Sequence record: PX915676.1
Strand: one strand, 5' to 3'
Length of the DNA stretch: 64,000 nt
Origin: a phage
A program made the position numbers and the translations under genes. This document shows, piece by piece, positions 16,698 through 18,011 of the stretch. Position 1 is the stretch's first letter. Every line of letters starts with the position of its first letter. The notes below the pieces were generated by a model. The model did not search any database. It was not told the origin of the DNA and was given only the letters and a program-made list of their open reading frames with translations.

Positions 16698-18011
16698 ATG
16701 ATTGTTATCCCGATTAACCAAATTGAAGATAAGGTTGCTCAACAACCTGATATCACTGTTGGTCGTCACTTCATTGAACAGTTGATTAACAACAACTTGA
16801 TTCCAGATGGTATCTGTCCCATCATTACTGGTGGGGCTGTTCGTGATGCTGTCCTTAATAACATAGCTCCACATGACATTGATATCTTTATTGTCAGAGG
16901 ACAAACACCAAGAACTCAAAACACTTTCATCCCAACTGATCGTTGGCAAGAGCTTGGACGGGAGATTGAAAGTAATGTGAAGGAATGGCTAGAGTCACAA
17001 GATATTGAATATGCATCACTTCTTGCTGAAGCTACAAACGAATCCTATGCTGGGGGTTCTCAATTAACATTCACTGATATTATTGAGTTTCAGTGGAATG
17101 GGGTTCGTATCCAATTCATGTTTAATTATCCTACTTCTATTGAAGAGGTATTGGATAATTTTCCTATGATGTGCCGTGGTGCGATGACTCTTGACAACTT
17201 ATTCATGACTTCTCACGGATATTTGGCTATGACTTCCCCTTGTCCAGTGGTTGTCTCTAGTCGTGAAATCAGGTATGTTCACAAGAAGTGGCCTAACTCA
17301 CAAGTGTTGAGATTTTCCTCTCCAGCAGTTGCGCATCAATACATGGCCCAAACTCGATATCTTCCCACACCTCAGCCAGTTAGTCATCTAGTCAATGGAT
17401 TAGGTCAGGTTTCTCTTATTGAAGATACAACAAGTGCTCTATATTGTGTTAACCGAGACATGAGTCGATTCTTTGGAATCCCTTATGAAGAGATTCAGAT
17501 TATGTCTAGTCTTCACGGTTCTGGTCAGATTCATGCGTATTGGTCTGAGGGGTTGACAAATTTAACGACTAACACGGGTGGTGATCTGCTTGGTCGAGAA
17601 GAGGAACCTAACCGACACAATGCAATTGAAGGGGTGTTTGTAGCCCCTGCAATGCGTCGAGCACAAGAGTCACGAAGAGAAAGCCCTACTCGTAGAACAT
17701 CTTTTGAAGAAGCTCTTGGTATTACAAGTGATTCTATGGAGCGATGGATGGCTAGACCCTCTCGTGGTCGACCAAACGGCTTAACTGTTAGCGCACGTCA
17801 GTTCTCTGGTCAGGGTTTCGCTGTTGGTGATATCAACGCCCCTTCTCGTGTTATCTGGACTGATGAAGGTATGGAACAAGATTTGGGAGATAGTCTCGCT
17901 GATCGCTTTATTGCTAACAACCCTGAAGTATTAGAACCTCAAACCCGTACAGTTCGGTTTGCCGATGAAGCGGGTCGTGGAATCTCTTTTGACATGGAAA
18001 CAAATAACTAA
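16698..18011 (+). CDS. nucleotidyltransferase of CCA-adding enzyme/poly(A) polymerase family
   Basis: Head-domain signature ITGGAVRDAVL...HDIDIFIV; ATG overlaps exonuclease stop; non-homologous C-terminal half. Confidence 0.6.
   Translation: MIVIPINQIEDKVAQQPDITVGRHFIEQLINNNLIPDGICPIITGGAVRDAVLNNIAPHDIDIFIVRGQTPRTQNTFIPTDRWQELGREIESNVKEWLESQDIEYASLLAEATNESYAGGSQLTFTDIIEFQWNGVRIQFMFNYPTSIEEVLDNFPMMCRGAMTLDNLFMTSHGYLAMTSPCPVVVSSREIRYVHKKWPNSQVLRFSSPAVAHQYMAQTRYLPTPQPVSHLVNGLGQVSLIEDTTSALYCVNRDMSRFFGIPYEEIQIMSSLHGSGQIHAYWSEGLTNLTTNTGGDLLGREEEPNRHNAIEGVFVAPAMRRAQESRRESPTRRTSFEEALGITSDSMERWMARPSRGRPNGLTVSARQFSGQGFAVGDINAPSRVIWTDEGMEQDLGDSLADRFIANNPEVLEPQTRTVRFADEAGRGISFDMETNN

Follow-up and report, generated by a model that had tools for sequence, protein, structure and literature searches.

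The stretch of phage DNA analysed here, sequence record PX915676.1, is a window of 64,000 nucleotides (nt), to whose positions all coordinates refer, and comes from a Kuravirus, a phiEco32-like podophage of the subfamily Gordonclarkvirinae. The gene of interest lies at 16698-18011 on the plus strand and is a complete coding sequence of 437 amino acids (aa) plus a stop codon. Its product, called gp73 below, is the ortholog of phi32_73 in phiEco32, gp073 in ES17 and CDS74 in SU10. Sequence comparison and structure prediction give good support to gp73 being a head-only Pol-beta nucleotidyltransferase in which the catalytic residues are all conserved, and its gene has a fixed place in an operon of replisome and deoxynucleoside triphosphate (dNTP) genes. 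The explanation that we tentatively favour, with a confidence that stops a little short of even, is that gp73 is a replisome-linked, Gad2-like counter-defence transferase that acts on DNA-linked substrates and so protects phage DNA. The gene has been annotated in GenBank already, for years in the case of the NJ01 and SU10 records, and was flagged in the BASEL paper (PMC11990801). What is new here is the failure of tests for a CCA-adding enzyme beyond motif A, the grouping with Gad2 and with small phage nucleotidyltransferases, the fixed place in a replisome operon, and a disordered tail that is under selection.

The catalytic domain occupies the N-terminus of gp73 (residues 1-220; 16698-17357, plus strand) and is predicted to form a Pol-beta-fold head of class II-like type. 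Conservation within it was assessed in a family alignment of 33 representatives that came out of a search through 1.84 billion (1.84e9) representative proteins. Motif A (residues 43-64, ITGGAVRDAVLNNIAPHDIDIF; 16824-16889, plus strand) contains G45, G46, R49 and D50 along with the putative metal-binding aspartates D60 and D62, and these six residues are invariant in all 33 representatives. A beta-strand at residues 125-133 (FTDIIEFQW; 17070-17096, plus strand) carries D127, which by analogy with the Pol-beta pattern is the probable third catalytic carboxylate; Asp or Glu is found there in 33 of 33 sequences and the adjoining I128 is also invariant. The other positions without exception in the alignment are Q139, P156, Asp or Glu at 190, Y193, and K197. 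The signature of the Pol-beta superfamily, hG[GS]x9-13Dh[DE]h with a third carboxylate on an adjacent strand and a mixed alpha/beta head, can therefore be traced in full in gp73. Within Kuravirus, the ratio of non-synonymous to synonymous substitution rates (dN/dS) is 0.07-0.13 for this domain. In the AlphaFold2 model, residues 1-220 are predicted confidently, residues ~245-285 with moderate confidence, and residues 285-437 with a predicted local distance difference test (pLDDT) score below 50. The protein as a whole is acidic, and the isoelectric point (pI) of the catalytic domain is ~4.8 across the family. Because the catalytic residues are invariant, gp73 is probably active as an enzyme.

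Class II nucleotidyltransferases provide the obvious frame for comparison. In these enzymes, motif B (RRD) recognises the ribose 2'-OH, motif D (EDxxR) acts as a protein template that selects cytidine triphosphate (CTP) and adenosine triphosphate (ATP), and the alpha-helical neck, body and tail domains bind the acceptor and T-arm of tRNA. Their motif A, GGxVRD followed by DxD, is present in gp73 as G45 G46 A V R49 D50 ... D60 I D62. The original prediction, made from the letters of the DNA, was thus right to read a class II head signature (GGAVRD...DIDIF, residues 43-66) in the N-terminus, and right that kinship with CCA-adding enzymes stops short of the C-terminal part. Motif A is also the sole stretch of the gp73 family that aligns confidently to CCA enzymes. 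The Pfam PolyA_pol head profile (PF01743) scores 18.8 bits against gp73 (E=0.0022, profile positions 3-82 of 126), which is below its gathering threshold of 23 bits, and relatives of gp73 likewise remain under that threshold. When PDB sequences were searched with the family profile, the matches were to CCA-adding enzymes only, over motif A only, with E=0.013. The same search with gp73 alone produced a sole match, of VP7 to the tail (E=0.67), which is meaningless, and single-sequence searches of NCBIfam and PADLOC with gp73 found no family. A direct hhalign comparison of the gp73 family with a small alignment of CCA-adding enzymes and poly(A) polymerases (the CCA/PAP set) reached 93% probability over 61-81 columns. 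The Foldseek search of PDB with the gp73 model gave E ~1e-4, the best structural matches being CC-, A- and CCA-adding enzymes and poly(A) polymerase I (PAP I). These comparisons support a true, if distant, kinship of the N-terminal domain with the head of class II CCA-adding enzymes and poly(A) polymerases.

Beyond motif A, membership in the CCA-adding family is not supported by any of the features tested. Motif B RRD was not found in the 33 representatives; residues 153 and 154 are variable, and its place (RRDFTINA in class II) is taken by an F155-P156-x-x-C159-x-G-A motif (17160-17183, plus strand), with Phe or Met at 155 and Cys, Ser or Ala at 159. Nor was motif D EDxxR found. At its place is a helix with a different motif, R189-[D/E]190-x-x-Y193-x-x-K196-K197-W-P (17262-17294, plus strand), in which an invariant Tyr stands in place of the Arg, although the register in which hhalign sets residues 189-197 against EDPLRVLR of Cca is of low confidence. 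Neck, body and tail domains are likewise missing from gp73: Pfam detected no RNA-binding or tRNA_NucTran domain, and the AlphaFold2 model has a short helical element only. Genuine CCA-adding enzymes occur in 428 phage records. The matches listed are of two kinds, Cca homologs over the full length, with 35-46% identity to E. coli Cca, and head-plus-neck proteins with 44-56% identity over that part; no Kuravirus is among the matches listed. A true CCA-adding enzyme was accordingly ruled out on motifs B and D, on domain architecture, on the Pfam threshold, and on what genuine phage CCA enzymes look like. Of the proposed assignment to the CCA-adding-enzyme family, what stands is the distant class II head with its intact catalytic residues.

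The original prediction went on to suggest that gp73 repairs or completes tRNA 3' ends, adding C and/or A onto a missing or damaged CCA as a counter to defences that attack the acceptor end. The class II character of motif A agrees with this proposal, and so do the structural matches to CC-, A- and CCA-adding enzymes and PAP I described above and the presence of a phage tRNA. Toxins that damage tRNA 3' ends, such as MenT and toxSAS, do exist. The tRNA in question, tRNA-Arg(TCT) at 382-457 on the plus strand, is the only one in the window, and a tRNA-like element that had been reported alongside it was ruled out, since neither ARAGORN nor Rfam (at the gathering threshold or E<=1) found one in the 64 kb. 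The tRNA-Arg gene encodes its own 3' CCA (...GGGCGCA-CCA), so the transcript needs no CCA synthesis after transcription. Besides the missing RRD and EDxxR motifs, the missing neck, body and tail, the disordered C-terminus and the sub-threshold Pfam score, the proposal has to contend with an acidic catalytic domain, with a place in a replisome operon that has no tRNA logic, with profile relatives on the Gad2 side, and with the full-length or head-plus-neck form of real phage CCA enzymes. Repair of tRNA by gp73 is therefore unlikely, and it is the least probable of the explanations considered here.

A related explanation is that gp73 puts untemplated poly(A) or short tails on RNAs of the host or the phage, or on RNA primers, for example by promoting host RNA decay that feeds the ribonucleotide reductase/dNTP pathway. 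The likeness to PAP I in the head is common to this explanation and to the previous one. However, PAP I needs its neck, its body and a basic C-terminal region to bind RNA, and gp73 is without these; it is acidic, compared with a pI of 9.7 for E. coli PcnB, and the ribose-sensing RRD of motif B is missing. Tailing of RNA is for these reasons regarded as quite improbable.

Relatives of a different kind were identified by profile comparison. Gad2 is an anti-defence protein of Bacillus phage SPbetaL7 that acts against Gabija; it is 400 aa long, is a predicted nucleotidyltransferase, and its deletion renders the phage Gabija-sensitive (bioRxiv 10.1101/2023.05.01.538930). A paper of February 2026 still lists its mechanism as unknown (PMC12904381). 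Precomputed matches to the Pfam family PF26128 'Gad2' are present in 30 of 44 close homolog clusters of gp73 and in the representative P0052; wherever the strength of a match was marked, as for P0052, the mark was weak. Direct hhalign comparison of the gp73 and Gad2 families gave 63% probability (E=7e-5) over 97 columns that span the helix before motif A, motif A itself, the IQxM strand, and the F(P/D)xxC motif. A bridge between the two is provided by 28 small phage nucleotidyltransferases of 170-250 aa, picked as weak matches of the gp73-family profile. Compared with this set, the probability is 99.6% for the gp73 family (E=1e-24 over 143 columns, the whole catalytic domain), 99.2% for the Gad2 family (E=2.5e-19 over 133 columns) and 96% for the CCA/PAP set (E=2e-9). 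A single hidden Markov model (HMM) of the bridge set scores gp73 at 77 bits, Gad2 at 74 bits and E. coli PcnB at 21.6 bits, with no match to Cca. In addition, one protein (P0081) is significant to both sides, with E=1.5e-6 from the gp73 family in the search of 1.84e9 proteins and E=1.3e-16 from the Gad2 HMM. In AlphaFold2 models, the order of helices and strands in the N-terminal domain is alike in gp73 and in a homolog 98% identical to Gad2. These comparisons give good support to placing the gp73 domain in a phage-specific clade whose members are small head-only nucleotidyltransferases, and which includes, by a transitive link, the catalytic domain of Gad2. Equally well supported is a distant origin of this clade from the class II head of CCA-adding enzymes and poly(A) polymerases. 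The original prediction had itself named placement in an unrelated nucleotidyltransferase family as an outcome that would speak against it; the nearest families, the small phage head-only set and then Gad2, come close to that, with the class II head still a distant relative.

The small nucleotidyltransferases are found in many phage groups, including ICP1, phAPEC8-like phages, Justusliebigvirus and marine podophages. Their phrog_1614 profile matches gp73 with E=1.6e-7, and they are also found by Foldseek in a viral library. Literature searches found no functional study of them, and the GenBank label 'putative tRNA nucleotidyl transferase/poly(A) polymerase' that some of them carry is annotation only; Gad2 is the only member of the clade that has been studied functionally. 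The genes of two of them also lie near replication genes. In Vibrio phage 1.253.O the small gene (L015 5001-5648) overlaps the end of a 5'-3' exonuclease gene, and in phAPEC8 it (L016 3986-4579) is ~0.6 kb downstream of the DNA polymerase gene.

The location of the gp73 gene is among its most conserved properties. Upstream of it are the genes for a DnaB-type primase/helicase (14355-16145, plus strand) and for a separate 3'-5' exonuclease subunit of a split family A DNA polymerase (16139-16696, plus strand; PF01612, E=2e-8), and directly downstream is a dCTP deaminase gene (18021-18554, plus strand; PF22769, E=3.6e-34). The stop codon of the exonuclease-subunit gene is 1 nt before the gp73 ATG, and the gp73 gene is translationally coupled to that gene. 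The order primase/helicase, exonuclease subunit, nucleotidyltransferase, dCTP deaminase is the same in ES17, phiEco32, KBNP1711 (Nieuwekanaalvirus), and Bas86. It is kept in three genera of E. coli phages and in every relative examined, down to ~25-30% identity, and in metagenomic relatives down to E=1e-34 wherever the contig is long enough, homing endonucleases being the only interruption. Further downstream are genes for thioredoxin, a Dps/ferritin-like protein, and ThyX, joined in relatives by NrdD.

The remainder of gp73 evolves in a different manner. The middle region (residues 221-285; 17358-17552, plus strand) is modelled by AlphaFold2 with low confidence at 221-245 and moderate confidence for helices at ~247-277; its dN/dS is 0.13-0.32, and F259 is invariant in an alignment of 23 sequences. 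It is followed by a C-terminal tail (residues 286-437; 17553-18008, plus strand) that is predicted to be disordered, has a dN/dS of 0.36-0.52, and is net acidic (pI ~4.9) yet contains 12% Arg. Insertions and deletions in the tail are frequent, and the Kuravirus orthologs range over 432-456 aa. Orthologs in the other two genera are alike over the first 220-260 residues only, at 30-40% identity, and across genera the tail varies in both length and sequence, with totals of 274-482 aa in the family. The best-conserved tail segment is at the very end (residues 399-437, SLADRFIANNPEVLEPQTRTVRFADEAGRGISFDMETNN; 17892-18008, plus strand), is near-identical in six Kuravirus orthologs with indels just upstream, and is a candidate short linear interaction motif. 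The substitution rates indicate that the tail is under purifying selection within Kuravirus. Two other accounts of this region were discarded: junk or a recent frameshift, on the dN/dS values and the near-invariant last 39 residues in Kuravirus, and an overlapping hidden gene, as the other frames have no open reading frame (ORF) of at least 40 aa over 17000-18011.

Tails that end in an aromatic residue are common in this family. A terminal Phe, Trp or Tyr is present in 14 of the 33 representatives, a count over related sequences that are not independent, and the aromatic content of the tail is 7.6%. Examples from P0047-P0074 end in ..SF, TWDW, EYDF, RSEW, RWQW, REVW, RFNF, GWTF, GTY, and EDY. 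The primase/helicase also has an acidic C-terminal tail (16020-16145), which ends in ...SPW in the window and has a terminal PW or PF in every relative examined (...GASPW, ...SPF, ...LPF). The T7 proteins gp4 and gp2.5 and E. coli SSB have terminal-Phe tails that dock onto replisome partners. The resemblance of the aromatic ends in the gp73 family and the helicase to these tails is an analogy that offers a lead.

How gp73 might act as a replisome-linked, Gad2-like transferase can be set out in a few steps. D60, D62 and D127 would bind Mg2+, and a nucleoside monophosphate would be moved from a nucleoside triphosphate (NTP) or dNTP to a hydroxyl group. The acceptor would be a DNA-linked substrate met at the replisome, for example replication intermediates or phage DNA at its 3' ends, to which the disordered tail could bring the enzyme by tethering it to partners in the replisome. 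Phage DNA would as a result be shielded from host nucleases that sense ends or nicks, of the Gabija type and possibly including restriction enzymes. A tRNA acceptor is improbable, since gp73 is without the body and tail that bind tRNA and without the motif D that templates CTP and ATP. In favour of this explanation are the invariant catalytic core, the link to Gad2, the conserved gene order, the replication-gene neighbours of small relatives in other phage lineages, and the aromatic tail ends in the family and the helicase. The restriction resistance of Gordonclarkvirinae also speaks for it, as avoidance of EcoRV, EcoRI and EcoKI sites does not account for that resistance. A further possibility, which we hold to be unlikely, is that a replisome-tethered gp73 nucleotidylates phage DNA itself, at 3' ends, nicks, or a base, to create a new covalent mark or cap.

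Several points weigh against the explanation that we favour. The likeness to the class II head is stronger around motif A (93%) than the direct profile match to Gad2, which is weak (63%), and the enzymes that match best in structure all work on the 3' ends of RNA, making an RNA acceptor plausible. Our own Gad2 HMM does not reach gp73, and the bridge set was picked with the gp73-family profile, so that only its link to Gad2 is independent. The mechanism and substrate of Gad2 are themselves unknown, so 'Gad2-like' fixes no chemistry. Besides, Gad2 has a folded, beta-rich C-terminal domain (residues ~250-400, block-mean pLDDT mostly 81-95) where gp73 is disordered and has no similarity to it, and Gad2 is encoded in the SPbeta anti-Gabija locus, whereas gp73 is encoded in a replisome operon. 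The acidic catalytic domain has no evident nucleic-acid-binding module accompanying it. The Kuravirus tail ends in ...GISFDMETNN, which is non-aromatic, and the same is true of the other versions from E. coli phages. Finally, the avoidance of CCWGG, PstI and SacI sites argues that the DNA is not globally protected.

Site usage bears on another explanation, which was put forward in the BASEL study. Gordonclarkvirinae show unusual resistance to restriction systems without a known cause, and the authors name the dCTP deaminase and the nucleotidyltransferase in this respect (PMC11990801), the hypothesis being that the two contribute a step in genome-wide covalent modification of DNA that gives a non-canonical base. 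The two genes adjoin in every relative examined that has an identifiable downstream gene, homing-endonuclease insertions aside, and a conserved cluster for an amidoligase, an ATP-grasp protein, a glutamine amidotransferase, and a gamma-glutamyl cyclotransferase is found just upstream. Many target sites are also kept: the window has 39 EcoRV, 8 EcoRI, 4 EcoKI, and 56 EcoP1 sites, and GATATC (EcoRV) is over-represented (39 compared with 17-20 expected). Site avoidance was consequently ruled out as the cause of resistance to these four enzymes, the sites being present, although other sites are strongly avoided. CCWGG (Dcm/EcoRII) occurs 3 times where ~75-89 would be expected, a ~25-fold depletion, and the window contains no PstI, SacI, NcoI or StuI site (~11-18 expected for PstI and SacI), which suggests that the DNA is cleavable by some enzymes. 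GATC occurs 141 times compared with 239 expected. The phage encodes ThyX, which fits ordinary synthesis of thymidine monophosphate (dTMP) and argues against DNA that contains deoxyuridine (dU-DNA). The genomes have been sequenced routinely, and the analyses run here gave no link of the clade to a base-modification pathway. Modification of the genome by the gene pair is judged rather unlikely. Distinctly unlikely, in our view, is a role as a small-molecule or protein nucleotidylyltransferase, in which gp73 would make or modify a nucleotide signal (for example a ligand that holds off a nucleotide-sensing nuclease such as GajA) or attach a nucleoside monophosphate to a protein of the host or the phage (NMPylation), with the tail selecting the target.

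The neighbourhood of the operon has further features. A conserved cluster at ~7700-14135 on the plus strand, just upstream of the replisome genes, contains COOH-NH2 ligase/Amidoligase_2, large GATase_6/7, DUF7195, and DUF7020 genes. It also includes an ATP-grasp gene (by the phiEco32 annotation) and a gamma-glutamyl cyclotransferase gene (GGACT, 13716-14135), and is kept in two relatives (L005 1-5409 and L007 1-5408). It looks like a peptide or amino-acid ligation pathway, and it could have a bearing on DNA or protein modification. Right after the dCTP deaminase gene, at 18555-19170 on the plus strand, are three tandem ORFs of 65, 69 and 69 aa, which correspond to phiEco32 gp71-69. They are paralogs, ~26% identical, that have TR(E/Q)xAR in common and end in Y(Y/HY). 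In ES17, an HNH homing endonuclease is annotated directly after the dCTP deaminase (L001 10862-11371), and it is not in the ORF list of the window (18554-18560), for all that the gp73 genes are identical. The window thus appears to derive from a near relative of ES17 and not from that phage.

Transcription was considered with the middle/late promoter element of the phiEco32 sigma factor gp36, TAATGTATA (consensus from PMC8948821). A middle promoter of this type directly before gp73 was ruled out, as AAATGTAAA at the stop/start junction is more than one mismatch from TAATGTATA. The first plus-strand match past gp73 is AAATGTATA at 19195-19203, with one mismatch, just upstream of the gp68 homolog, and the first exact plus-strand match is at 23319-23327. 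Other matches of the TAATGTATA type are at 30346-30354 on the plus strand and at 30274, 40064, and 56919 on the minus strand. Over the whole window, matches with one mismatch or fewer are not above chance (15 found compared with 18 expected). As the nearest middle-promoter match is downstream, at 19195, the gp73 gene is placed in the distal part of the early transcription unit.

Within the known phages the gene is well represented. Its DNA is 100% identical to that of Escherichia phages ES17 and myPSH1131, and it is found at 80-100% DNA identity in 70 phage records. The phrog_12715 profile (Kuravirus-type nucleotidyltransferase) matches gp73 over its full length (E=2e-245; residues 1-437 aligned to profile positions 1-457). 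The phiEco32 ortholog is labelled 'hypothetical protein'. For the ortholog in SU10, one peptide was detected by mass spectrometry (PMC4281155). The family is small, with only ~27 clusters at E<1e-20 in the search of representative proteins. A longer ORF with a GTG start (16641) was ruled out, since all homologs have MI.IP at the start and the upstream stop codon lies right against the ATG.

In a common group of E. coli phages, which therapy studies make use of, the gp73 gene is conserved as part of the replication module, and the substrate of gp73, once found, could assign a function to the whole clade. It is also experimentally accessible, since Bas90 (SkaterBoy), whose copy of the gene is near-identical (99.9% DNA identity), infects a K-12 strain of E. 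coli in which the O-antigen has been restored. It thus offers a practical route to the chemistry of Gad2-type nucleotidyltransferases. If nucleotidylation of DNA by gp73 were true, it would explain the resistance of Gordonclarkvirinae to restriction and to end-sensing nucleases, and would reveal the mechanism of Gad2 and of the small head-only nucleotidyltransferases in phage replication modules. The practical gain would be smaller if gp73 were an ordinary accessory nucleotidyltransferase, in which case the GenBank labels 'tRNA nucleotidyltransferase' and 'CCA-adding enzyme' would be a fold-level annotation only.

Viewed beside known systems, the gp73 domain connects the class II CCA/poly(A) head with two other groups, the small phage nucleotidyltransferases and anti-Gabija Gad2. 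With CCA-, CC- and A-adding enzymes and PAP I it has the head and motif A in common, without motifs B and D or the neck, body and tail; those enzymes are neutral or basic and come from other genomic settings, whereas gp73 is acidic and sub-threshold in Pfam. Its nearest relatives by profile are the small nucleotidyltransferases of the phrog_1614 type, such as phAPEC8 gp183 and those of ICP1 and of Vibrio and Aeromonas podophages. These have 170-250 aa and no tail, unlike gp73, and the R..KY..K helix is common to both. Like gp73, Gad2 is a phage protein of ~400 aa with an N-terminal Pol-beta nucleotidyltransferase domain and two N-terminal helices. The motifs that the two proteins have in common are motif A (IIAGGA...xDxDIyF), with GGAITS in Gad2 in place of GGAVRD in gp73, the IQxI/M strand, F(D/P)xxxCxGA, and R..(K/R)Y..K. 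The F155-P156 motif of gp73 matches FDFTVCMGA of Gad2, and its helix at residues 189-197 matches the R..KY..K of Gad2.

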